A stretch of 64,000 nt of DNA, taken from the IMG/VR virus record IMGVR_UViG_3300046517_002960, positions 126,217-190,216 of that record. One strand, 5' to 3'. This document shows, one piece after another, positions 23,347-53,613 of the stretch. Origin of the DNA: a virus. The notes beneath the pieces are model-generated. The model had not been told where the DNA came from. It did no database searches and saw only the letters and a program-made list of their open reading frames with translations. The first letter of the stretch is position 1, and each line of letters starts with the position of its first letter. The position numbers were made by a program, and so were the translations under genes.

Positions 23347-23745
23347 ATGCCGACAAGAGACTGGTGGGCGACCGAGTGGGATCGTTCAGCTTACGACCGG
23401 CAGCGGTACGAAGCAGCGAAACAGCAGCTCATCGCCCTGCTAGGCGGTAAATGTGCTAGATGCGGAACAACTGAAAACCTCCAGTTCGACCACGTAAATC
23501 GTGAACTCAAGGACTTTGCGATTACGGGCCGGTGGAACCGCAGCCAGGCTGAACTGGAAGCGGAACTAGCGAAGTGCCAGCTACTTTGCCAGCCTCACCA
23601 TCTGGAGAAGACCCGGCAAGAGATCGGTAACGAACACGGAGGCGGTAAAACAGGGATCAGGAAGTGCAAATGCGAACTCTGTCGGAACCGCAGAAGCGAA
23701 CACATGATCGAATATCGGCGTGAGCGTAAGAAGCAAACTACATAG
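23347..23745 (+). CDS. HNH homing endonuclease
   Basis: LGGKCARCG..LQFDHV..KCQLLC..HH; lower GC than its surroundings. Confidence 0.9.
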   Translation: MPTRDWWATEWDRSAYDRQRYEAAKQQLIALLGGKCARCGTTENLQFDHVNRELKDFAITGRWNRSQAELEAELAKCQLLCQPHHLEKTRQEIGNEHGGGKTGIRKCKCELCRNRRSEHMIEYRRERKKQTT

Positions 23746-23815
23746 GAGTGACCCACCGGTTCGGGAACCGCTCTCCAAAAGCGGTAAAAACAGCGTTCGA
23801 CTCGCTGCACTCCTG
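23744..23815 (+). tRNA. tRNA-Trp(CCA)
   Basis: AGGAGTG/CACTCCT; CCGCT-CTCCAAA-AGCGG; T-loop TTCGACT; overlaps the HNH stop. Confidence 0.8.
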
Positions 23816-23985
23816 CGACCGTCAGCCAAGGCGAGAGCCGCGGCAGGCGAATGTCACCGACATTTGAGAACTCCATAGCGTGAGCACCACGACGGGGGCG
23901 CCATCCCCCGTCACCTGGTGCGGTCCCCAGGCGCGATCAGCGGGCGAGTCGCCCCCGTGCCATGGCACCGCACCAATCCGTGCTG

Positions 23986-24025
23986 ACCTGGCCGGGCCGG
24001 TTGTTGCTAGACGGCCCGGCCAGGT
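23986..24025. repeat. 14-bp perfect inverted repeat (hairpin)
   Basis: ACCTGGCCGGGCCG..CGGCCCGGCCAGGT. Confidence 0.6.
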
Positions 24026-24040
24026 ACGGCACGATCCGAT

Positions 24041-24113
24041 GGGGCTGTAGCTCAGCTGGGAGAGCGTCTGCGTGGCACGCAGAAGGCCAGGGGTTCAAGT
24101 CCCCTTAGCTCCA
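24041..24113 (+). tRNA. tRNA-Ala(GGC)
   Basis: GGGGCTG/TAGCTCC; canonical arms. Confidence 0.95.
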
Positions 24114-24207
24114 CGCGGAGAGATCAGGGTGCAAGGTAGCGCGCCGTCGATGGAGGGCGGCGATGCTCCTGGGCAGCGGCCTGGCCGCGGACCACCCTTG
24201 CAGGCAC

Positions 24208-24280
24208 GGGGCTAGGGCGCGGCTGGTAGCGCAACTCGTTCGCACTGAGAAGGTGAGGGGTTCGAATCCCCTTAGCTCCA
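24208..24280 (+). tRNA. tRNA-Ala(CGC)
   Basis: GGGGCTA/TAGCTCC; loop TTCGCAC. Confidence 0.85.
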
Positions 24281-24284
24281 CAAT

Positions 24285-24362
24285 CCAGGGAGATCCGGGG
24301 ATCGCGTCCCGGCAGGGGTCCTGGTGCCCCTGTAGCTCAAGTGCAGAGCGCCTGGAGTACAA
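24285..24362 (+). ncRNA. Circularly permuted tRNA-like element 1
   Basis: CCAGG - variable - T-like arm - CAGGGGT - 6-nt linker - GCCCCTG - D arm - CCTGG. Confidence 0.65.
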
Positions 24363-24434
24363 CGGGACCGAGGAAGGCGGAAATCCGCCTCGTTCGGGGC
24401 GAGGAGAAGCCGGGTTCAACTCCCGGGGTCCCGA
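24363..24434 (+). tRNA. tRNA-Pro(CGG)
   Basis: CGGGACC/GGTCCCG; CCTCG-TTCGGGG-CGAGG. Confidence 0.8.
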
Positions 24435-24450
24435 CTATGCTTTCGATTTA

Positions 24451-24525
24451 CGGGCTGTAGCTCAGTTTGGTCAGAGCATCCGGCTGGGGGCCGGGAGGCC
24501 GCCGTTTCAAATACGGCCAGCCCGA
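24451..24525 (+). tRNA. tRNA-Pro(GGG)
   Basis: CGGGCTG/CAGCCCG; loop CTGGGGG. Confidence 0.9.
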
Positions 24526-24526
24526 C

Positions 24527-24599
24527 GAGGAGGAAGACGCGGTTCGAATCCGCCTGGCGGCTGAGAATGCCAACGGTAGCTCAATGGTAGAGCACCCTC
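24527..24599 (+). ncRNA. Circularly permuted tRNA-like element 2
   Basis: T arm GCGG-TTCGAAT-CCGC precedes D arm GCTC-AATGGTA-GAGC; closed by GAGG/CCTC. Confidence 0.55.
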
Positions 24600-24603
24600 C
24601 GTA

Positions 24604-24676
24604 CGGGGCGTAGCGCAGTTGGCCGCGCGCCTGATTTGGGATCAGGAGGACGTCAGTTCGAGCCTGGCCGCCCCGA
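24604..24676 (+). tRNA. tRNA-Pro(TGG)
   Basis: CGGGGCG/CGCCCCG; CCTGA-TTTGGGA-TCAGG. Confidence 0.9.
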
Positions 24677-24684
24677 CTGCACGA

Positions 24685-24759
24685 GGTCACCTAGCTGAGA
24701 CGGATTAGCGGCTGCCTGAAAAGCAGCAGAGGCAGGGTCGCTACCTGCGGTGACCACCA
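24685..24759 (+). tRNA. tRNA-Phe(GAA), atypical T-loop
   Basis: GGTCACC/GGTGACC-A-CCA; GCTGC-CTGAAAA-GCAGC. Confidence 0.85.
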
Positions 24760-24957
24760 TGGCATGACGGCGGATGGGCGCACGGGCAAACCGGGTCAGC
24801 CATCTTCCGCCTGGCCAGGCGAGTAGCGCTCCGCCTGGTAAGCCAGGCTGCTGCAGCGGCCCGGTCTCATGCCGCCCGGAGACGGGCCTGGTCACACCTG
24901 CGGTCAGCCTCGCAAGGGCGCCTGCCGGTCCCTGCTATCAGGTGGTCTCCGGGACTC

Positions 24958-25030
24958 GCGGATGAGTCCCAAACGGAAGGGTGCCGGCCCTCCAAGCCGG
25001 CTGCTGCGGGTTCGAGTCCCGTCATCCGCT
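24958..25030 (+). tRNA. tRNA-Gly(TCC)
   Basis: GCGGATG/CATCCGC; loop CCTCCAA. Confidence 0.85.
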
Positions 25031-25129
25031 CACGTGGGCTGCCACCGCCTCCCTACTAGGCAGCAGCTGGCCCGGCATACGCGGAGTGACCCCAGCCGGG
25101 GAATAACTGGTCACCAGGGGAGGCACCTC

Positions 25130-25201
25130 AGTCCGGTAGCTCAGCGGCAGAGCGGCGGGCTCTTAACCCGCGCGGCCTCGGTTCGATCCCGAGTCGGACT
25201 A
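25130..25201 (+). tRNA. tRNA-Lys(CTT)
   Basis: AGTCCGG/TCGGACT; GCGGG-CTCTTAA-CCCGC. Confidence 0.9.
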
Positions 25202-25389
25202 CGCAATGGGGGGCTTGTACTGCGGTACTGGCCTTAAACGGTGTCCCGGCTCGGCAATACGCGCGTGTTGCCCTGCACCTGGAGCGCCCCGCCGTGCCCT
25301 GTGCAGGGGCACGAGAACCCGCAGGGACCGTGCGTCAGCTGCGGGCGCCAACGGCTGGCTCGCACGGCCGGCCGGCGGCACTGCACGAC

Positions 25390-25477
25390 GGGCGGGTGGC
25401 GCAGCAGGATGACGCACCGGATTCAAGTCCCGGCGTCCGTAAGGACATTGAGGGTTCAACTCCCTCCTCGCCCACCA
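25390..25477 (+). tRNA. tRNA-Leu(CAA)
   Basis: Long variable arm; loop TTCAAGT; encoded CCA. Confidence 0.85.
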
Positions 25478-25502
25478 TTCTCCGGTCAGCCGGAGAATTC
25501 CA

Positions 25503-25577
25503 TGCGGTATGGGGGAACTGGCAGACCCGCCGGGCTCTGAACCCGGAGTTTTCCTGGTTCGAAGCCAGGTACCGCAG
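25503..25577 (+). tRNA. tRNA-Gln(CTG)
   Basis: TGCGGTA/TACCGCA; CCGGG-CTCTGAA-CCCGG. Confidence 0.9.
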
Positions 25578-25579
25578 CT

Positions 25580-25655
25580 GGAGTTGCTGGATAGCGCATG
25601 GGCAAGGCGCTTAGAGCTGGCCAGCTACCCGTTCGATTCGGGAACGGCAACTCCG
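25580..25655 (+). ncRNA. tRNA-like element without a recognisable anticodon loop
   Basis: GGAGTTG/CAACTCC acceptor; CCCG-TTCGATT-CGGG T arm. Confidence 0.45.
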
Positions 25656-25724
25656 CACAAGGTGTCCGGCGATTTCGCGTAGGAGCCGTCCAGCCTTTAA
25701 CTGGATCGGGGCAACGCGAGCAGT

Positions 25725-25799
25725 GCCCCGGTAGCTCAGGTCGGCCAGAGCGACGGCTTCGTAACCCGTGGGTCCCCAGTTCGATTCTGGGTCGGGGCT
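25725..25799 (+). tRNA. tRNA-Thr(CGT)
   Basis: GCCCCGG/TCGGGGC; loop TTCGTAA. Confidence 0.9.
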
Positions 25800-25872
25800 C
25801 TGTGCCGGTGCTGGCCTCAATAAGCCGGGCCTTCGGGTCACGCGCCCAACCGGGCTGGTACCGGCACTTCAC

Positions 25873-25958
25873 GTCCGGGTGATGGAATCGGAAGACGTGC
25901 TAGCTTGAGGAGCTGGTGCCCCGGAAGGGGCGTGCGGGTTCAAGTCCCGCCTCGGACA
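25873..25958 (+). tRNA. tRNA-Leu(GAG)
   Basis: Long variable arm; CTAGC-TTGAGGA-GCTGG. Confidence 0.9.
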
Positions 25959-25960
25959 CA

Positions 25961-26037
25961 GGGGAAGCAGTAGCTTAACGGACAGAGCACGGCTGATCAC
26001 CGACTGGTGAGGGGTTCGAGTCCCTTCCTGCTCCCCC
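25961..26037 (+). tRNA. Atypical tRNA-Ile(GAT): long acceptor, short anticodon stem
   Basis: GGGGAAGCAG/CTGCTCCCC; CGG-CTGATCA-CCG. Confidence 0.6.
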
Positions 26038-26041
26038 GTTC

Positions 26042-26116
26042 GCCGGCCTAGCTCATCGCAGGCAGAGCGTCCGCCTTGTAAGCGGAGGGTGGCCGGTTTG
26101 AGCCCGGCGGCCGGCT
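26042..26116 (+). tRNA. tRNA-Thr(TGT)
   Basis: GCCGGCC/GGCCGGC; TCCGC-CTTGTAA-GCGGA. Confidence 0.9.
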
Positions 26117-26120
26117 CCGG

Positions 26121-26193
26121 TGGGGACTGGGGTAACTGGCAGCCCGCCGGCCTTTGAAGCCGCGTAGTGCCCGTCCGAATCGGGCGTCCCCAG
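26121..26193 (+). tRNA. tRNA-Gln(TTG)
   Basis: TGGGGAC/GTCCCCA; loop CTTTGAA. Confidence 0.85.
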
Positions 26194-26202
26194 CAATAAC
26201 AC

Positions 26203-26276
26203 GCCCCGGTAGCTCAGCCGGTAGATGCGTCGGCATGGTAAGCCGAAGGTCCGCGGTTCAAATCCGCGTCGGGGCT
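26203..26276 (+). tRNA. tRNA-Thr(GGT)
   Basis: GCCCCGG/TCGGGGC; TCGGC-ATGGTAA-GCCGA. Confidence 0.9.
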
Positions 26277-26277
26277 C

Positions 26278-26623
26278 GAGCCGGCCGGACGGCCGCGGTA
26301 CCTGCACGTCAGGTACTGAGGAAAGTCCGGGCTCCAACGGGCAGGACGGTTGTTAACGGCAACCCGGGGCAACCCGCGGGAAAGCGTCACAGAAAGCAGA
26401 CCGCCCCGGCGACGGGGTAAGGGTGAAACGGCGGTGTAAGAGACCACCAGCGGACCGGGTGACCGGCCCGGCTCGGCAAGCCCCGTCCGGAGCAAGATCG
26501 CAAGGCCGAGGGCGGCCCGCCCGCTGACGCCTGGTGGATCGCACGAGCTCGCCGGCGACGGCAGGCCTAGATGGATGGCCGTCCCCCTGCGGCGGGGACA
26601 GAACCCGGCTTACAGGCCGGCTC
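26278..26623 (+). ncRNA. rnpB: RNase P RNA, bacterial type A
   Basis: GAGGAAAGTCCGGGCTCC (CR-I), ACAGAAA, GGGTGAAACGGCGGTGTAAGAGACCACC, ACAGAACCCGGCTTA (CR-V); P1 GAGCCGGCC/GGCCGGCTC. Confidence 0.97.
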
Positions 26624-26689
26624 AATGCCCGCTCCCCGGAGCGGATGTGCGGCGTAAGACCCGGCCGGCCGCGCGGCCCGGGCAGTCAT

Positions 26690-26762
26690 GCGGACGTGGC
26701 GCAGCTGGTAGCGCACGTGCTTGCCAAGCATGAGGTCGCGGGTTCAAATCCCGTCGTCCGCT
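26690..26762 (+). tRNA. tRNA-Gly(GCC)
   Basis: GCGGACG/CGTCCGC; canonical. Confidence 0.95.
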
Positions 26763-26834
26763 CTGAGATCACGCGGGATACTGGAGTGGCCCTGTCTGAA
26801 CCGCATCCGCGAACAGCGATCGCCGTGATCTCGC

Positions 26835-26918
26835 GCCCCGCTGGCGAAGCTGGAAGACGCGCACGGTTCAGGACCGTGTGTCCGTGAGGACGGGAGGGTT
26901 CAAATCCCTCGTGGGGCA
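26835..26918 (+). tRNA. tRNA-Leu(CAG)
   Basis: CACGG-TTCAGGA-CCGTG; long variable arm. Confidence 0.9.
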
Positions 26919-26923
26919 CTTCA

Positions 26924-27014
26924 GGAGGGTTGGCCCGGAGCTGGCGTACTGGGACCGCACTGCTAATGCGGCAGTCTGGAGACAGGCTCGCGAGTTCGAT
27001 TCTCGCACCTTCCG
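26924..27014 (+). tRNA. tRNA-Ser(GCT)
   Basis: CCGCA-CTGCTAA-TGCGG; long variable arm. Confidence 0.9.
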
Positions 27015-27170
27015 CGAGCAGGACAGGCTCTCCCCGCTGGCGGGCAGGTTACCCGCAGGGAGAGCCGGCCGGCGGCGGTAATCGGCCACCCCACCTGCCC
27101 TAGACGCTCTCCGGAATCCGCACCGGGAAGCGCCAAGCCCGGCGTCCCGGGCACTGCAGATTCTACCCCT

Positions 27171-27261
27171 GGAGGGTTCGCCTAGTGGCCTATGGCGCCG
27201 GCCCGGAAAGCCGGTTGGGACGAAAGTACCCTCGCGAGTTCGACTCTCGCACCCTCCGCCA
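27171..27261 (+). tRNA. tRNA-Ser(GGA)
   Basis: CCGGC-CCGGAAA-GCCGG; encoded CCA. Confidence 0.9.
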
Positions 27262-27296
27262 GCCTGGCCGTCCGGAGAATGGCGGCTGGGCCTGCT

Positions 27297-27383
27297 GGAG
27301 GATTCGCCTAGCGGCCAGGGCAGCCGATTTGAAACCGGCCAGGGGTCTTGCAGCCCTCGCGAGTTCGAGTCTCGCATCCTCCG
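27297..27383 (+). tRNA. tRNA-Ser(TGA)
   Basis: Loop TTTGAAA; long variable arm. Confidence 0.85.
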
Positions 27384-27387
27384 CCCG

Positions 27388-27475
27388 GGAGGGTTCGCCT
27401 AGTGGCCTATGGCGCCGGCTTCGAAACCCGGTTGGGACGAAAGTACCCTCGCGAGTTCGACTCTCGCACCCTCCG
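27388..27475 (+). tRNA. tRNA-Ser(CGA), near copy of Ser(GGA)
   Basis: Identical to 27171 except in the anticodon arm and the 3' tail. Confidence 0.85.
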
Positions 27476-27497
27476 CTTCACACCGTGCTTCACACAT

Positions 27498-27575
27498 GGG
27501 CCGGCAGCGTAGCCCGGTTCTCGCAGCTGGCTGATAACCAGTTTGGCGGAGGTTCAAATCCTCCCCGGCCCACCA
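27498..27575 (+). tRNA. tRNA-Ile(GAT)
   Basis: GCTGG-CTGATAA-CCAGT; encoded CCA. Confidence 0.9.
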
Positions 27576-27576
27576 T

Positions 27577-27653
27577 GGCGAGATAGCTCAGGCTGGCAGA
27601 GCGCCGGACTCATACCCCGGAGGTCGGGATCTCGGTATTCCCTCTCGCTACCA
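27577..27653 (+). tRNA. tRNA-Met(CAT) elongator (or Ile2)
   Basis: GGCGAGA/TCTCGCT-A-CCA; loop CTCATAC; atypical T-loop. Confidence 0.75.
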
Positions 27654-27732
27654 CGGCCCGTAGTTCAGCCTGGCTTAGAACGGCACCCTTATGAAGTGTG
27701 CGTCAGGGGTTCAAATCCCCTCGGGCCCACCA
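27654..27732 (+). tRNA. tRNA-Ile(TAT), C1:C72 mismatch
   Basis: Loop CTTATGA; encoded CCA. Confidence 0.75.
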
Positions 27733-27733
27733 T

Positions 27734-28309
27734 TCAGGAAGCACCGGCTAGCGGCACCTGCCGGGCGTTCCAGGCGCTGACGGCGGACAGCGTGAACCCG
27801 TCCGTGATCTCCCCGGCAGCGATCATCGCGGTGAGCCCGGAAAAGGTCAGCCACCGGATCTCGGTGATCTCCTCGGTGTCGGCCGGCACGGCCTGCATGG
27901 CCGCGGCACCTACCCGGGCCGCGTACATGTGCACCGCGGTCCCGAGGTGCGCGGAGTCCGGATGGACGCAGCCCAGGAATACCAGGTCCAGGGCCGCGGC
28001 GCCGATCTCCTCGATCAGCTCGGCGCGGGCGGTGGTCTCAGGGCAGGGGCCGTGCGCGTAGCCGCGGGGGAAGCCCCATTCCCATTCCTGGGTGGCGTAA
28101 CGCCAGGTCCGGACCAGGGCGGTATGCTCGCCGGTCACCGGCATGACGACCACGCCGGGATGGCCGCTCCCGGAGATGATGCGGTAGTAGCGGCCCTGCC
28201 GTCCGGAGGAGAACCGGACGTGATCATCAAATACGGTGACGAACCGGTTCCGGTAGACGATCTCCTCGGCGATTCTCTCGATCGGCGGCGCGCTGGCAGG
28301 TGCAGTCAT
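27734..28309 (-). CDS. NUDIX hydrolase (ADP-ribose pyrophosphatase-like)
   Basis: GFPRGY..ETTARAELIEEIG Nudix box; RTWRYA. Confidence 0.9.
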   Translation of the reverse strand: MTAPASAPPIERIAEEIVYRNRFVTVFDDHVRFSSGRQGRYYRIISGSGHPGVVVMPVTGEHTALVRTWRYATQEWEWGFPRGYAHGPCPETTARAELIEEIGAAALDLVFLGCVHPDSAHLGTAVHMYAARVGAAAMQAVPADTEEITEIRWLTFSGLTAMIAAGEITDGFTLSAVSAWNARQVPLAGAS

Positions 28310-28387
28310 GATCTTCCGTTCCCGCTCCCTGCCCCTGACAACGTGTCACAGCGAAGATACGTTCAGTGAGTAGCCTTATGTAAGCAG

Positions 28388-28459
28388 GGTCCGCTAGCTC
28401 AACGGCAGAGCATCCGACTTTTAATCGGCTGGTTCAGGGTTCGAGCCCCTGGTGGACCA
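28388..28459 (+). tRNA. tRNA-Lys(TTT)
   Basis: GGTCCGC/GTGGACC; loop CTTTTAA. Confidence 0.9.
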
Positions 28460-28460
28460 C

Positions 28461-28664
28461 TCAGCCCCAGGACACCATCTGCGGGGCCGGGTGCTTGGTC
28501 CAGGTGTCGGCGAGCGCCGGGTGCGCGTGCTTGGTCCAGGTGTCGGCGACGGTCGCGTGATGCGGAGCGGGCGGGGTGCCCCAGGACACCATCGCGGCAC
28601 CGGAGCCCGTGGCAACGGCGGCTGCGAGGACGAGAGCGGCGATCCTGGCCTTGGCGGATTTCAT
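28461..28664 (-). CDS. Secreted 67-aa peptide with repeated ADTWTKH and MVSWG motifs
   Basis: GAAGG SD; Sec-type signal MKSAKARIAALVLAAAVA; internal DNA repeats. Confidence 0.7.
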   Translation of the reverse strand: MKSAKARIAALVLAAAVATGSGAAMVSWGTPPAPHHATVADTWTKHAHPALADTWTKHPAPQMVSWG

Positions 28665-28702
28665 AGCGTTACCTTCCCCGTTACTAGGTGTTCTCATAAC
28701 TG

Positions 28703-28730
28703 AGCGTACAGACCGGTCACAGCGTGTCAA
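28703..28730 (-). promoter_or_regulatory. Promoter for the peptide gene
   Basis: TTGACA-N16-TACGCT on the minus strand. Confidence 0.6.
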
Positions 28731-28734
28731 TAGC

Positions 28735-28763
28735 TTGCGCGGCACTTTCCGTAGCCGTAAGGT
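28735..28763 (+). promoter_or_regulatory. Promoter for the second tRNA block
   Basis: TTGCGC-N17-TAAGGT ending 9 nt before tRNA-Arg. Confidence 0.5.
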
Positions 28764-28771
28764 GACAGGAT

Positions 28772-28844
28772 GCGCCTGTAGCTCAAGGGGATAGAGTCTC
28801 GCCTTCTAAGCGAGGGGATGGGGGTTCGATGCCTCCCGGGCGCG
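28772..28844 (+). tRNA. tRNA-Arg(TCT)
   Basis: GCGCCTG/CGGGCGC; loop CTTCTAA. Confidence 0.9.
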
Positions 28845-28975
28845 CTGGGGACCCCGGCCTGCGAGGCGGCCCGTGAGCCGTCGCCGGCAGATCCGGCACC
28901 GGGGTCCTCAACTAGTCTCAGCTGAGATATCGCGTAGTAGCCTCTTGAGACATCGGTCATTGCTATACTGAAAAC

Positions 28976-29470
28976 ATGACCATGCCCACGCCGCACTTCT
29001 GCGACTGTGGATGTGGTGAGAAAACAGCTGTTGCCCCGAGGAATAATACGAAGCGGGGATACGTCAAGGGCTTGTCGTTCCGGTTCGTCGGACGGCATCA
29101 TGCCTGGAAAGGCGACGAGGCCAGCTATCGTGTCTTGCACACAGCTCTGAACCTGCACTACCCGAAGTCAGGCGTGTGCGAGGAGTGCGGCGCGGAAGCA
29201 GAGACCGAGTACTCACTGATTCATGGCCGTCAAGTGTCTCGGCGGCGCGAGGATTACAGGGAGCTCTGCAAACCCTGTCACCATGGTTACGACACGGGCG
29301 GGGAGCGCAGCCTGAACGCTAAGCTGACGGAAGCGAACGTGCGTGATCTCAGAGTGCGCTTCGATGACGGGCAAGGCGAGCCTATTGAAGTTCTTGCTCG
29401 CGAGTACGGCGTTTCTCCCGCGGCGGCTTACCGGGCTGCGACGCGCAAGTCCTGGCGTCACGTCGCTTGA
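28976..29470 (+). CDS. HNH-type endonuclease with C-terminal HTH, probably leaderless
   Basis: CDCGCG..WKGD..Y..LH..CEECG..DYRELCKPCH; TGcTATACT extended -10 just upstream. Confidence 0.85.
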   Translation: MTMPTPHFCDCGCGEKTAVAPRNNTKRGYVKGLSFRFVGRHHAWKGDEASYRVLHTALNLHYPKSGVCEECGAEAETEYSLIHGRQVSRRREDYRELCKPCHHGYDTGGERSLNAKLTEANVRDLRVRFDDGQGEPIEVLAREYGVSPAAAYRAATRKSWRHVA

Positions 29471-29506
29471 CGGATGTACCTGAAGATTGCTTCTGAACGC
29501 TTACAT

Positions 29507-29584
29507 GGTCCTGCAGGCCAGCCAGGAGTGGCCGTCTGCCCCTCAAGCAGGAGATCGCGGGTTCGAATCCCGCCAGGACTACCA
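29507..29584 (+). tRNA. tRNA-Glu(CTC)
   Basis: Loop CCCTCAA; encoded CCA. Confidence 0.9.
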
Positions 29585-29585
29585 T

Positions 29586-29660
29586 GGCCCCATAGTGCTA
29601 GCGGTCCAGGCCGCCTGCCTTTCAAGCAGGAGATCACGGGTTCGAATCCCGTTGGGGCTA
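29586..29660 (+). tRNA. tRNA-Glu(TTC)
   Basis: CCTGC-CTTTCAA-GCAGG. Confidence 0.9.
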
Positions 29661-29674
29661 CGGTGTAAATGCGA

Positions 29675-29746
29675 CGCGGAGGGTGCTAGGTCAACCAGCC
29701 AGGCTCATAACCTCGGCAAACGCGGGTTCAAATCCCGCCTCCGCTA
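29675..29746 (+). tRNA. Initiator-like tRNA-fMet(CAT)
   Basis: CGCGGAG/CTCCGCT with C1 mismatch; loop CTCATAA; lacks the full 3 G-C anticodon pairs. Confidence 0.7.
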
Positions 29747-29750
29747 CTAA

Positions 29751-29821
29751 GGTGCCCTGGAGCGTTTCCGGCTGACTACCGGTCGTCGCCCCGGGTTCGT
29801 CGCCGGGATCAGGGCACCCCA
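29751..29821 (+). ncRNA. D-armless tRNA-like element (GAC loop) ending in CCA
   Basis: GGTGCCCTG/CAGGGCACC; CCGG-CTGACTA-CCGG; CCCGG-GTTCGTCG-CCGGG. Confidence 0.5.
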
Positions 29822-29822
29822 G

Positions 29823-29894
29823 TCCCCCATAGCTCAATGGCAGTAGCGCCCGGCCGTTAACCGGTGGATCTTGGTTCGAGTCCAGGTGGGGGAG
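29823..29894 (+). tRNA. tRNA-Asn(GTT)
   Basis: TCCCCCA/TGGGGGA; loop CCGTTAA. Confidence 0.9.
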
Positions 29895-29907
29895 CGCAGA
29901 AACACAA

Positions 29908-29981
29908 GGTGGCGTAACTCAGCAGGTCAGAGTGCTGGACTGTCTATCCGGAAGTCGCGGGTTCGAATCCCGTCGTCACCG
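29908..29981 (+). tRNA. tRNA-Asp(GTC)
   Basis: GGTGGCG/CGTCACC; loop CTGTCTA. Confidence 0.9.
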
Positions 29982-30094
29982 CTAGCACCCAGTCCCTGGT
30001 GCTTGCCCGGAAGGTCTTCCGCACACTGCGCGCGGCAGCGGAAGCGCCTGGCCGGGGAACCCGCGACAGCGTAACAGCGGCGGATGGGACACAC

Positions 30095-30168
30095 GGTCGC
30101 TTAGCTCAGTTCGGGAGAGCGTCGTCCTGACGCGACGAAGGCCACTGGTTCAATCCCAGTAGCGACCA
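30095..30168 (+). tRNA. tRNA-Val(GAC)
   Basis: TCGTC-CTGACGC-GACGA. Confidence 0.9.
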
Positions 30169-30182
30169 CGCAGTACCAGCAA

Positions 30183-30255
30183 GTCCCCGTAGCTCAACGG
30201 ATAGAGCTGCTGCCTACGGAGCAGTGCGTTGCAGGTTCGAGTCCTGCCGGGGATG
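30183..30255 (+). tRNA. tRNA-Arg(ACG)
   Basis: GCTGC-CTACGGA-GCAGT. Confidence 0.9.
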
Positions 30256-30324
30256 CCAGCGGAGAGGTATCGGCAGTACCGTAAAGCCAGGTCACGTGCC
30301 CGAGGACCTGCGCCTCTCCGTCAA

Positions 30325-30400
30325 GGGCGGTTAGCTCAGCGGGAGAGCGCTGGGTCCACACCCCGGGACATTTGCGCCGGTTCGATCCCGGCACCGCCTA
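30325..30400 (+). tRNA. tRNA-Val(CAC)
   Basis: GGGCGGT/ACCGCCT; loop TCCACAC. Confidence 0.85.
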
Positions 30401-30402
30401 CT

Positions 30403-30474
30403 GTGGCCGTAGCTCAATGGTCAGAGCAACGGGCCGTGAACCCGAATATGCGCGTTCAATTCGCGTCGGCCACC
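30403..30474 (+). tRNA. tRNA-His(GTG), no encoded G-1
   Basis: GTGGCCG/CGGCCAC-C; loop CCGTGAA. Confidence 0.85.
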
Positions 30475-30476
30475 CC

Positions 30477-30560
30477 GGCAGGTTACCCAAGCGGACAAAG
30501 GGAGCTGTCTGTAAAACAGTCGGCATTACGCCTGCGCTGGTTCGAACCCAGCACCTGCCA
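30477..30560 (+). tRNA. tRNA-Tyr(GTA)
   Basis: GCTGT-CTGTAAA-ACAGT; long variable arm. Confidence 0.9.
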
Positions 30561-30561
30561 C

Positions 30562-30981
30562 ATGAACACGAAAACGAGAATCGGCCTGGACTACTGGCAG
30601 GTCTGCAGCCACTGGCCGTACTTCGGCGAGCTGGCGGCGGCCCTGCGGGCGGCAGGCCATGAGGTGCACGTCATCTCGGCGGTCGGCCGGAAATCCGCCG
30701 GCACCGTCGCGCCCGGGCTAGCTGAGCTCGGTATCGCCGTTGACGGCGTGCACGAGCGGCTGTTCCGCCATCCGCGGGAGTCGCCGCAGCTGAAGCTGGC
30801 CGCGTGCCGGGAACTGGGCATCGGGGTCTTCTACGACGACCGGCAGGACGTGACCGACCTGCTGAACGCGAACGGGATCCTGGCCCTGCGGGTGCCGCGG
30901 CGCCAGGCCGGGCTGTCGGACACTGAGGGAGAACGGCGGGGCTCGCCGCCGCGGGGTGATCGTGACCCGGCAGCCGTCTAA
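30562..30981 (+). CDS. HAD-superfamily-like protein (degenerate DxD)
   Basis: RIGLDYW..GHEVHVISA..KLAACRELGIGVFYDDR. Confidence 0.65.
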   Translation: MNTKTRIGLDYWQVCSHWPYFGELAAALRAAGHEVHVISAVGRKSAGTVAPGLAELGIAVDGVHERLFRHPRESPQLKLAACRELGIGVFYDDRQDVTDLLNANGILALRVPRRQAGLSDTEGERRGSPPRGDRDPAAV

Positions 30982-31046
30982 GGTCGTGACCCGGCTGAAC
31001 GAGAAAGACCCGCCAGCCTCAGGGCACAGCGGGCCGCAGTAAGCAG

Positions 31047-31120
31047 GACCCCATAGCTCAGCGGATAGAGCACCGCCCTCCGGAGGCGGGTTGTCGCAGG
31101 TTCGAATCCTGCTGGGGCCA
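31047..31120 (+). tRNA. tRNA-Arg(CCG)
   Basis: CCGCC-CTCCGGA-GGCGG. Confidence 0.9.
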
Positions 31121-31179
31121 CTGGCTGGCAGGTGAGCAGGCTGACACCGCCTTCGGGCTCAGCCCCCTGCCGGCCGTAC

Positions 31180-31255
31180 CGCCGAGTGACCGAGCTGGCT
31201 AGGTGAACGCCTGCAAAGCGTTTTGACACGGGTTCAAGTCCCGTCTCGGCGTCCA
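31180..31255 (+). tRNA. tRNA-Cys(GCA)
   Basis: AACGC-CTGCAAA-GCGTT; U73; encoded CCA. Confidence 0.9.
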
Positions 31256-31256
31256 C

Positions 31257-31330
31257 GACCCTGTAGCTCAGCCGGATAGAGCAGGCGCCCCCTAAGCGCT
31301 ATGTCGCGGGTTCGAATCCCCCCAGGGCCA
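31257..31330 (+). tRNA. tRNA-Arg(CCT)
   Basis: GGCGC-CCCCTAA-GCGCT. Confidence 0.85.
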
Positions 31331-31344
31331 CGTATGATGAGGAC

Positions 31345-51659: not shown

Positions 51660-53215
51660 TCAATGCCTCCCATTGCTGCCATGGCCGTTGAGCACCAGGT
51701 CCTGCCGCGACGGGATCCACGCCCCGACGAACTCCGGCGGGCTGGCCTGGACGTGCGCCCGAGCCCTCCGGCGCGTCTCCAGGAAATCGAGGATGAGCTG
51801 GGCATCCTCGCGTTCTTCGCGGGTCGCGCCGTAGTGGCGCTGGGACGCGATGATCTGGCCGAGCTCCTGCTCAGCGGACGGCACCTGGGGGACCGCACCC
51901 GGCGTCGGCTCGGCCAGCCCCTGCTTGGCCAGCTGCTGCAGCTTGTCCGCGGCCAGGTCCATCTCCAGGTCGATCGACGGCTCCATCGACTTGGGGATGC
52001 CGCGGATCGACCGGGCCATCGCGACCATGACTTCCAGCGGGATGAACTCGTTGCCGGCCCCGCCGGGCAGCGGCTCGAGGTCTTCCAGGTCACGGATCTC
52101 ATCGACGCTGCGCAGGCCCATCTCCCGCTGCGCGTGGTAGATCTCTGTCCGCGTCTTCAGGTCCGTCTTCAGCAGGGCATCGGAGTTGAAGCGGCAGTAC
52201 CGGTTCTGCGGCAGCAGCTGGAAGAAGGCCGTTTCCAGTCTCACCAGCCACGGACGCAGCGCCTCGATCACCTGCAGGGTGCTCTGCTCCACTGTGTTGT
52301 AGGTGAGGCTGTCGCCGCGGGTGCCACCGATGCGGTCCGGGGGGAGGTTGAGGATGGAGGCGATCTGCGTGGCGTTCATGCGCAGCGCCTCGATGAACTG
52401 GCTCTCGCTCGGCGGCACGACCACCGGGGAGTACTTCCAGTCGCGGCCGTAGACCAGCGGCTCGCGGCGCCGGATGGTGGCGGTGAGCATGGACCGGATC
52501 TCCTCGGCCTGCTCGCGCGTGATCTCGATCTCGGTATTCTCGAACGTCCCGGGCGGGAAGCCCCCGGCGAGATACCAGTCCGTGCCGTAGCGCTCGGCTT
52601 CCAGGCCGGACAAGATGGTCAGCGCGAACGCGCGCAGCGGGGAGATGCCCTCCATCCGGCCCGGCAGGCTGAACGCCCTGATGTGGAACAGCTCGGAACG
52701 GTCCATCAGGCGGCCGTAGCAGTAGATCCGGGTGCGCAGCGGATTGAACGGCTGCGCCTGGTCCGGCACGACGTCAACGTCCTCGGGCGGCATCCACTCG
52801 ATCGACCGCGGCAGCCCGTAGCCGTCCCGGGAGGTGATCAGGCCCCAGGCATTGCCCTGCAGGAGCAGGCTGGACATGCACTGGAACAGCCAGTCGAACA
52901 GGGTGCCGTCGATGCTGGGCTGGTCGAAGATGGACGGGCCGTCGTACCGGCGGGTGCGCTGGTCGCCGCTGCCGGGCTTGAGGTAGATCTTCAGCGGCAG
53001 CGCGGCGGTGGAGTTGGCCAGCAGCGACACGCCGGAGTACAGCGCGGGCAGCGCGAGCGCCCGGTCAGTGCCGAAGAACGCCCGGGAGGGATGCACCGGG
53101 CCGCCCGTATCGAACTTCCGGGTAACCAGTAGGGATTATCCCAGGGCCTCCACGGCACCCCGCCGATCGCCCGGGCCTCTGTACGGCTCGCGCGTATCTT
53201 CTCGATCAATCCCAT
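51660..53215 (-). CDS. Portal protein interrupted by an 8-nt TTA-containing gap (53125-53118); about 515 aa when joined
   Basis: MGLIEKIR..WDNPYW + KFDTGGPVHPSR..; LLLQGNAW, HIRAF, QIASILNLPP, LTYNTVEQ, LRPWLVRLE. Confidence 0.9.
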
Positions 53216-53418
53216 AACTGCTGTATCACCCCCTCCCATCACAAGGGGGCGCAGAAGGGAACCGCTGACGCGGCAGGACTGGCTCGGACCTCAACAGTCC
53301 CACGGACCTGGGACTCCCCTGCGGACGGAACGGCGGACCCGGCTCCGTTCGGCCGCGGGCTAAGGACTAGCTCACAGCGTACGCCCTGACAGCCGTATTG
53401 TGTTAGGGCCGGGCATTC

Positions 53419-53613
53419 TCATGTCTGGCCGCACGTCACCCGCATGCCGGAAAGCCCGCTCGAGGCCCGCTCGGTGAGCATGTTCACGATCGCCTCGGCG
53501 AACGCCTTCCGGTCAGCGCCCAGCAGGTCCCGGTCCGGGTTGCACGCAGCCGTGTAGGCGATGGCGAACTCGATCTCGCCGGCCAGCGCCTCGCGCGGGA
53601 TGACGATCCTCAT
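53419..53613 (-). CDS. Hypothetical protein
   Basis: TGATG coupling; 64 aa. Confidence 0.55.
   Translation of the reverse strand: MRIVIPREALAGEIEFAIAYTAACNPDRDLLGADRKAFAEAIVNMLTERASSGLSGMRVTCGQT

Follow-up and report, generated by a model that had tools for sequence, protein, structure and literature searches.

How can a virus make one portal protein from a gene whose first 30 codons and remaining body lie in different reading frames, eight nucleotides (nt) apart? The question is raised by the minus strand of IMG/VR virus record IMGVR_UViG_3300046517_002960, a soil phage, in the form of a single contig of 190,216 bp with 70.9% GC and 39 tRNA genes. The stretch that we analysed, called the window, is its last 64 kb (64,000 nt, positions 126,217 to 190,216 of the record), and positions below are those of the window. 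The best explanation, which we consider likely from a comparison of this locus with its relatives, is a short ribosome hop, in which peptidyl-tRNA would leave the UGG that ends the first segment and re-pair on a downstream CGG with a mismatch at the first codon position. The parts of the site, including the start given by the list of open reading frames (ORFs), are as follows.

53237-53225, minus strand: extended Shine-Dalgarno (SD)-like sequence GGGAGGGGGTGAT, read from the sequence, 9 nt before the start codon.
53215-53213, minus strand: portal start codon ATG (M of MGLIEK..); homologs begin MGLIER.. at the matching place.
53215-53126, minus strand: first coding segment, 30 codons in frame 0, MGLIEKIRASRTEARAIGGVPWRPWDNPYW, ending in TGG.
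53128-53126, minus strand: take-off codon TGG (Trp30), a hot spot, as eight distinct inserts come after this Trp codon among the related loci.
53125-53118, minus strand: coding gap of 8 nt, TTACCCGG, whose removal gives W-KF as in contiguous homologs.
53125-53123, minus strand: TTA (UUA), in the frame set by ATG 53215, the proposed A-site codon at take-off.
53122-53121, minus strand: CC within the gap.
53120-53118, minus strand: landing triplet CGG, which matches TGG at positions 2-3 only.
53117-53115, minus strand: resume codon AAG (Lys31 of the joined protein), aligned with the K of W-KF in homologs.
53117-51660, minus strand: second coding segment, the portal body, 485 codons plus a stop (51662-51660), in the -1 frame relative to frame 0.
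53125-52991, minus strand: continuation of frame 0 if UUA is decoded (LPGSSIRAAR..), giving a product of 74 amino acids (aa) with its stop at 52993-52991.
53096-53094, minus strand: GTG, start of a 478-aa ORF in the ORF list; an internal Val of GGPVHPSR in homologs.

The portal body is an HK97-family portal: the 478-aa ORF matches PF04860 (Phage_portal) over profile positions 1-321 of 321, with an E value of 1.4e-51 and 176 bits against a cut-off of 39.1. A protein search found hundreds of close portal relatives, and those from intact ORFs begin MGLIERIQASRxEQRVIGGVPWRPWDSPYW-KF-xxGGPVHPSR. Because these intact homologs read contiguously across W-KF, the two segments in the window are halves of one conserved N-terminus. 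Joined, they would give a product of 515 aa, and homologs have 512-520 aa. The portal frame is shut by TAA at 53138-53136 and open from 53135, where it reads ..RKFDTGGPVHPSR.. (..RKFDTGGPVHPSRAFFGTDRALALPALY..). An SD motif of the GGGAGGGGGTGAT type also precedes ATGGG in homologous loci.

Much of this had been proposed in an earlier note on the same DNA, made from the letters alone, and its description of the site proved accurate. The SD and the ATG at 53215 that open MGLIEK..DNPYW are present on the minus strand as described; the frame reading and the PF04860 match agree with its assignment of the body to the -1 frame from AAG 53117; CGG shares only positions 2-3 with TGG, as it had said; and decoding of UUA does run to a stop after 74 codons. 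GTG 53096 is indeed the listed start. The segment MGLIEK..PYW, on whose presence in homologs the note had staked its proposal, is present in them and contiguous with the body.

TTA is the rarest trinucleotide of this genome and is located exactly where removal of eight nt restores W-KF, so the site goes beyond chance. The codon is also rare in the portal family itself. Across 72 distinct portal genes, with 22,399 aligned codons and about 2,065 Leu, only three TTA codons were aligned as matches, one being the head of an insert and the other two lying in badly aligned stretches; in-frame TTA thus effectively occurs only at insert heads in this family. Two crude genome-wide censuses of in-frame TTA, based on third-position GC (GC3) heuristics, were too noisy and were left unused. 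The 39 tRNA genes of the phage include Leu(CAA), Leu(GAG) and Leu(CAG), and no tRNA-Leu(UAA) is found among them. On the plus strand of the window, a cluster of 38 tRNA genes spans 23744-31331; among its calls are tRNA-Trp(CCA) at 23744-23816 and, at 27654-27732, an odd tRNA-His whose anticodon is ATG, and tRNA-Leu(UAA), tRNA-Leu(UAG) and tRNA-Met were not called in it.

The evidence that carries the hop comes from related portal genes. We aligned 80 metagenome loci to a contiguous homolog with a frameshift-tolerant aligner and also read the junctions directly. The alignment is unreliable past reference residue ~420 and in the loops 74-85 and 143-169, so events there were ignored, and locus L054 was dropped as an artefact. 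There remain 32 distinct inserts of 2-13 nt led by a rare codon, of which 31 begin with TTA directly after an in-frame codon and one begins with AAA. All lie within portal codons 19-34, none in the conserved core (codons 35-330), and the length is a multiple of three in about 8 of the 32. The AAA-led insert (L061:1552-1700, CGA-AAACCGC-CCC) has the same architecture as CGA-TTACCGC-CCC in L042, with the rare Lys codon AAA in place of TTA. Further examples are listed here with the insert between hyphens; CGA-TTAACGC and TTAAACCGAATGT are additional natural variants.

L018: TGG-TTAAGCGTGG-AAG.
L070: GTT-TTAACGGGTT-GGT.
L017, two inserts: GTT-TTAGAGTT-CCC and TAT-TTAC-TGG.
L049: CGA-TTAACGA-CCA.
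L081: TCT-TTAGGTAGTCC-CCG.
L008 group, the most abundant lineage: TGG-TTAGG-CGT.

Comparing landing codons in related portals was a check that the earlier note had suggested. With the resume codon set by protein homology alone, and the landing triplet defined as the one just before it, one tRNA can read both the take-off codon and the landing triplet in 21 of the 32 events; in 8 the two share two adjacent bases, and in 3 neither holds. Matching triplets occur at other offsets of the same sequences at a rate of 5.6% (32/576), and in 10,000 permutations of the take-off codons matches averaged 8.2 and never exceeded 17, as against the 29 observed. The landing triplet is moreover the first matching triplet downstream in 27/32 events, the CGG of the window included.

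These landings lend support to what the note had put forward, a hop of 8 nt that leaves TGG and lands on a near-cognate CGG. In the window, the TGG at 53128-53126 is followed by no NGG or TGN triplet before CGG at +8, and the next 30 nt contain no TGG. The pattern holds for each of the eight Trp take-offs, which land on the first NGG or TGN triplet downstream: TGG in L018 and L088, TGT in L069, TGC in L016, AGG in the L008 group, and CGG in the window together with L087, in L053 and in L090. Arg provides another landing whose sole mismatch is at the first position (CGA to AGC in L086). Given these other first-position mismatches in the family, the imperfect landing codon is a recurrent natural feature and not the oddity of a single genome.

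The take-off codons are biased as well. Once Trp and Met are set aside, the last base is A or T in 21 of 23 (12 are CGA, with GTT, TCT, GAT, TAT and TTT besides), as compared with 16% of codons in the same region of uninterrupted genes, where CGA encodes Arg-22 in 2 of 28 genes. The landing triplet is often a synonym of the take-off codon that ends in C. Decoding of CGA relies on an I-A pair, and that of NNU codons on G-U. The bias fits weak pairing in the P site and easy dissociation, and may partly reflect how the inserts originated.

From these observations, the following sequence of events can be proposed. Ribosomes would start at ATG 53215 and translate 30 codons to UGG (Trp30). The next codon, UUA, would be decoded very slowly or never, since no tRNA for it comes from the phage and decoding by the host would be limiting. 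With the A site empty, peptidyl-tRNA-Trp would release UGG and the mRNA would slide by 8 nt, until the anticodon CCA re-pairs on CGG through codon positions 2 and 3, with an A-C mismatch at position 1. AAG 53117 would then enter the A site, and the portal body would be read in what had been the -1 frame. The outcome would be a single 515-aa portal with the junction ..DNPYW-KFDTGG.., as in uninterrupted homologs; ribosomes that decode UUA instead would make the 74-aa dead-end peptide. The slow decoding of UUA, the re-pairing on CGG and any regulatory use of the site (to restrict the yield of portal, say, or to sense how the host decodes UUA) are what we infer from this arrangement. If the hop is true, a tryptic digest should yield AIGGVPWRPWDNPYWK, followed by FDTGGPVHPSR.

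Several points weigh against a hop. The landing triplet carries its first-position mismatch, and no stimulatory RNA structure was found at the site (81 nt, z = -0.12). Folding of 81-nt and 36-nt stretches from the window and seven related loci gave nothing better than shuffled sequences, with z-scores from -0.97 to +1.71 in the window and five other interrupted loci; a CUGG-UUAC-CCGG hairpin (-4.8 kcal/mol, z = +0.78) was likewise no better than shuffles. No well-placed internal SD was seen, the nearest GGAGG being 18 nt upstream of the take-off codon. The phage also lacks several other tRNAs with U34, so the missing UUA reader is not special and carries little weight. The match between take-off and landing codons could stem in part from the origin of the inserts, for example by short duplication, and not from selection for re-pairing. 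The in-frame inserts of L053 and L090 could simply be translated, giving W-LPR-KF. Finally, L015 (1290-1345) keeps the SD and TGG-TTAGCCTGC-AAA and is missing 28 N-terminal codons, so the N-terminal segment may not be indispensable; the only nearby ATG in this locus is in another frame, where it reads ATG CCT GGT TAG.

The alternative that survives best, though we regard it as improbable, is a -1 ribosomal frameshift after UUA and CCC have been decoded, with the last C re-read to give ..PYW-LPR-KFDTGG... The in-frame relatives offer some encouragement for this, as L053 and L090 would yield the same W-LPR-KF and the insert in the window equals that of L053 minus one C. The junction is nevertheless poorly built for slippage: there is no slippery X XXY YYZ heptamer near it, tRNA-Pro would have to move from CCC to ACC and tRNA-Leu from UUA to GUU, and no downstream structure was found. 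The family argues against it more broadly. A net shift of +1 would be required where the sister insert measures 4, 7, 10 or 13 nt, and one of -1 where it measures 2, 5, 8 or 11 nt, so no one direction of slipping covers them all, whereas skipping the whole insert always restores the conserved junction.

We think it quite unlikely that the gene is truly split, with a portal made from GTG 53096 or nearby without its first ~40 residues and with the 74-aa ORF as a separate protein or a remnant. The ORF list does begin the body at this GTG, the Pfam domain begins at residue 54 of a contiguous homolog so that the N-terminal segment lies outside the profile, and L015 does without the N-terminal codons. 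Against this, the GTG encodes the Val of the conserved GGPVHPSR, and the KFDTGGP that precedes it is conserved in the body frame; moreover, about 21 of 56 distinct genes would need such splitting, each at a different point. The upstream segment is also constrained as it is in contiguous genes. Our nearest relative with retrievable DNA, L087, has a portal 94% identical in aa and 93% in nt and carries the identical TGG-TTACCCGG-AAG. In the 30 upstream codons it differs from the window by 10 changes, 6 synonymous and 4 non-synonymous, and the flanks of the junction differ too. The identical insert and the mostly synonymous upstream changes indicate that the broken arrangement has persisted with its upstream segment under constraint at the protein level.

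A wider comparison gives the same picture. The first segment is 83% identical to residues 1-30 of the contiguous homolog P0012, compared with 74% for the core, and the ratio of N-terminal peptide to core identity averages 1.14 in interrupted genes versus 1.09 in contiguous ones (Mann-Whitney p = 0.31). These figures point to purifying selection on the upstream segment, and because the N-terminal peptide is equally conserved in interrupted and contiguous genes, they argue against both a pseudogene and an internally started portal. An AlphaFold2 model of P0012 (34-sequence alignment) has a mean pLDDT of 48, with residues 1-56 below 50, and is silent on the place of the N-terminal segment in the fold.

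A frame-breaking insert of 8 nt does look like a disabling mutation, and it could in principle mark a decaying or defective genome or a sequencing error. We hold this to be very improbable. Contigs of three further public runs (X3, X5 and X6, from different samples and studies) cover 53118-53128 with zero differences and zero gaps; all four runs were compared as contigs, so rare variants may exist. The runs listed for this stretch came from soil and rhizosphere samples, and there was no RNA run among them. The insert is thus identical in three further runs and in a relative that has diverged by 7% in nt, and it is not an assembly error. No decay is seen in the N-terminal ORF, the neighbouring protease and capsid genes are intact ORFs (in L087, protease S78 and capsid genes come after the portal), and the same grammar recurs in 32 distinct events. 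Removal or correction of the 8 nt in the RNA before translation, by editing, transcriptional slippage or a mini-splice, has nothing direct in its favour except that it would likewise restore the junction, and we give it hardly any credence, as there is no homopolymer run for transcriptional slippage, we know of no mechanism for the excision of 2-13 nt, and the match between the take-off codon and the last triplet of the insert is predicted by tRNA re-pairing and not by RNA excision.

Returning to the ribosome hop, we can ask how such inserts are distributed among portal genes. In the 56 distinct genes with a covered N-terminus, about 21 are frame-broken by inserts, and about 26 have at least one insert when in-frame ones are included. 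A tree of the portal core has inserts dispersed over every major clade, with differences between sister genes: 8 nt after W30 in the window and 6 nt after R22 in L007, none in L047 and two in L070, and none in L045, unlike L086. The well-supported nine-member clade that contains the window holds seven kinds of insert. A group with inserts of the form TTACC..GG (the window, L087, L053, L090 and L088) mixes 8-nt and 9-nt forms in portals that are just 63-74% identical, as expected if the length of the insert is not read as codons. Its in-frame members include L053 with TTACCCCGG (TGG TTA CCC CGG AAG) and L090 with TTACCACGG (TGG TTA CCA CGG AAG).

In-frame inserts of 6 or 9 nt, at codons 22 and 30, were seen in L007, L070, L075, L066, L016, L053, L088 and L090, with CGA-TTACGC-CCC and TGG-TTACCCTGG-AAA as examples. 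When hopped, they would give the same protein as their neighbours, and when read they would add 2-3 residues (LR, LQ, LPR or LPW), so two isoforms are possible.

With 32 kinds of insert and about 45% of genes carrying one, it is conceivable, though on balance we doubt it, that codons 1-35 form a natural hot spot in which inserts are gained and lost fast, two adjacent base pairs suffice for landing and weak take-off codons are favoured. Under this tentative proposal, the portal inserts, together with a putative hop in the terminase gene terL, might serve throughout the phage as a throttle or a sensor, making virion assembly depend on how the host decodes UUA; or the inserts might be scars that shield a conserved DNA target from a site-specific nuclease. 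The terL site lies on the minus strand at 56640-56630 (GAA-TTA-CT-GAG, then TTC), between overlapping ORFs at 57048-56584 and 56881-55352, and its 8-nt gap, from Glu to Glu, agrees in length with that of the portal, as the earlier note had remarked. Pfam recognised neither terL ORF.

The stretch of about 200 untranslated nt upstream of the portal start (window 53216-53400, minus strand; L087:1120-1316) looks near-identical in the window and L087 and, in the same comparison by eye, better conserved than the coding sequence. Part of it is also present in L015, and it contains hairpin-like repeats; an Rfam search of positions 52950-53450 gave no match. Beyond these metagenome loci, a phage collection held no DNA match, and its best protein matches were portals of cluster J mycobacteriophages at 34% identity, which leaves no annotated close relative. 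Contigs of GTDB genomes contained only six distant relatives (24-30% identity) and gave no clue to the host.

There is a practical side to these genes, in that gene callers truncate such portals or begin them in the wrong frame, which affects many database entries. Wrong-frame starts, or read-through of two compensating gaps, were noted in P0005-P0007, P0010, P0028, P0039, P0070, P0071, P0081, P0084 and P0107. The spurious N-termini that result from miscalling include MAPLGQSLLVRRFDTGG, a wrong-frame reading of the N-terminal region, and VLEFPGNPGTHLIYWKF. Separately, the portal alignment of L066, L071, L073 and L075 breaks after residue 328 in all four, with the DNA running on as ..TGC CTG ACG CT.. 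(Cys-Leu-Thr); an intein or some other inserted element seems to begin there.

How does the portal site compare with known cases of bypassing? Required bypassing has very few natural cases, and the UUA-led kind has been published for three terminase genes only. The proposal of UUA-led bypass in the phiHau3 terminase, from a Streptomyces phage, dates from 2013 (Smith et al.), and support for it from 2023 (Antonov et al., PMC10732093). The gaps are two of 10 nt in phiHau3 and 7 nt in the prophages StrepC.1 and S. catenulae; the full-length product was obtained in Streptomyces, and in E. coli, with UAA replacing UUA, mass spectrometry detected a junction peptide (PMC10732093). The portal site shares with phiHau3 an in-frame UUA right after the take-off codon, a short frame-breaking gap whose skipping alone restores the junction, a high-GC actinomycete phage setting and a virion-assembly gene. 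A peptide KGWG precedes the UUA of phiHau3, and a nascent-peptide effect has been suggested there (review PMC5009743); GGVPWRPWDNPYW, the Trp/Pro/Gly-rich nascent peptide ahead of the portal site, is likewise Trp/Gly-rich, which is a lead only. Unlike phiHau3, the site is in a portal gene with an 8-nt gap, its landing is near-cognate (CGG for UGG) where the phiHau3 type lands on a cognate codon, and neither the stem-loop nor the internal SD that phiHau3 is reported to have was detected. The frequency differs as well: interrupted terminase genes made up 3 of 100 surveyed (PMC10732093), in contrast to the roughly 26 of 56 portal genes with at least one insert.

The other systems are further away in one respect or another. 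In T4 gene 60, too, a peptidyl-tRNA leaves its take-off codon beside a slow A-site codon and re-pairs downstream, making one protein from two ORFs. Gene 60 has a stop codon, a take-off hairpin, a defined nascent-peptide signal, a 50-nt gap and a matched GGA to GGA landing, whereas the portal site has a sense codon in the A site, an 8-nt gap, no hairpin signal and a mismatched landing. The hungry-codon and stop hops of E. coli, described in reporters and over-expressed genes (PMC5009743), cover a few nt to a nearby matching codon with a starved A site, and are the closest match in mechanism and distance. Those hops are low-level errors or come from synthetic constructs; the portal hop, in contrast, is proposed to be needed for an essential virion gene and is conserved in nature. 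The byps of Magnusiomyces capitatus mitochondria (81 inserts of 27-55 nt) resemble the portal inserts in that many are tolerated through skipping and their spread is patchy and mobile-element-like. Byps are longer, GC-rich elements of a eukaryotic organelle, unlike portal inserts, whose length is 2-13 nt and whose defining mark is the rare codon at their head. In the overlap of primase genes gp50/gp51 of Bxb1, a 2025 paper suggests that a rare UUA triggers bypass (PMC12646305); this is again an actinophage gene in two ORFs with a rare UUA, with a different gene and anatomy and a mechanism that is still open.

Our literature search found no description of a portal case, with limited coverage of subscription journals, so that an earlier report is possible. 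Judging by its sequence features, the portal site probably belongs to the UUA-led kind of bypass published for the phiHau3 terminase. It would extend that kind to a second essential virion gene and provide natural, conserved examples of near-cognate landing. The related loci amount to a mutational series for the rules of short hops, made up of 32 gaps that range from 2 to 13 nt, one of them AAA-led, with several take-off codons, and the candidate rules that emerge are landing on the first triplet with two adjacent matches and take-off from weakly paired codons. What the portal genes appear to add to the terminase precedent is therefore a near-cognate landing rule, a take-off bias and a large series of natural variants.
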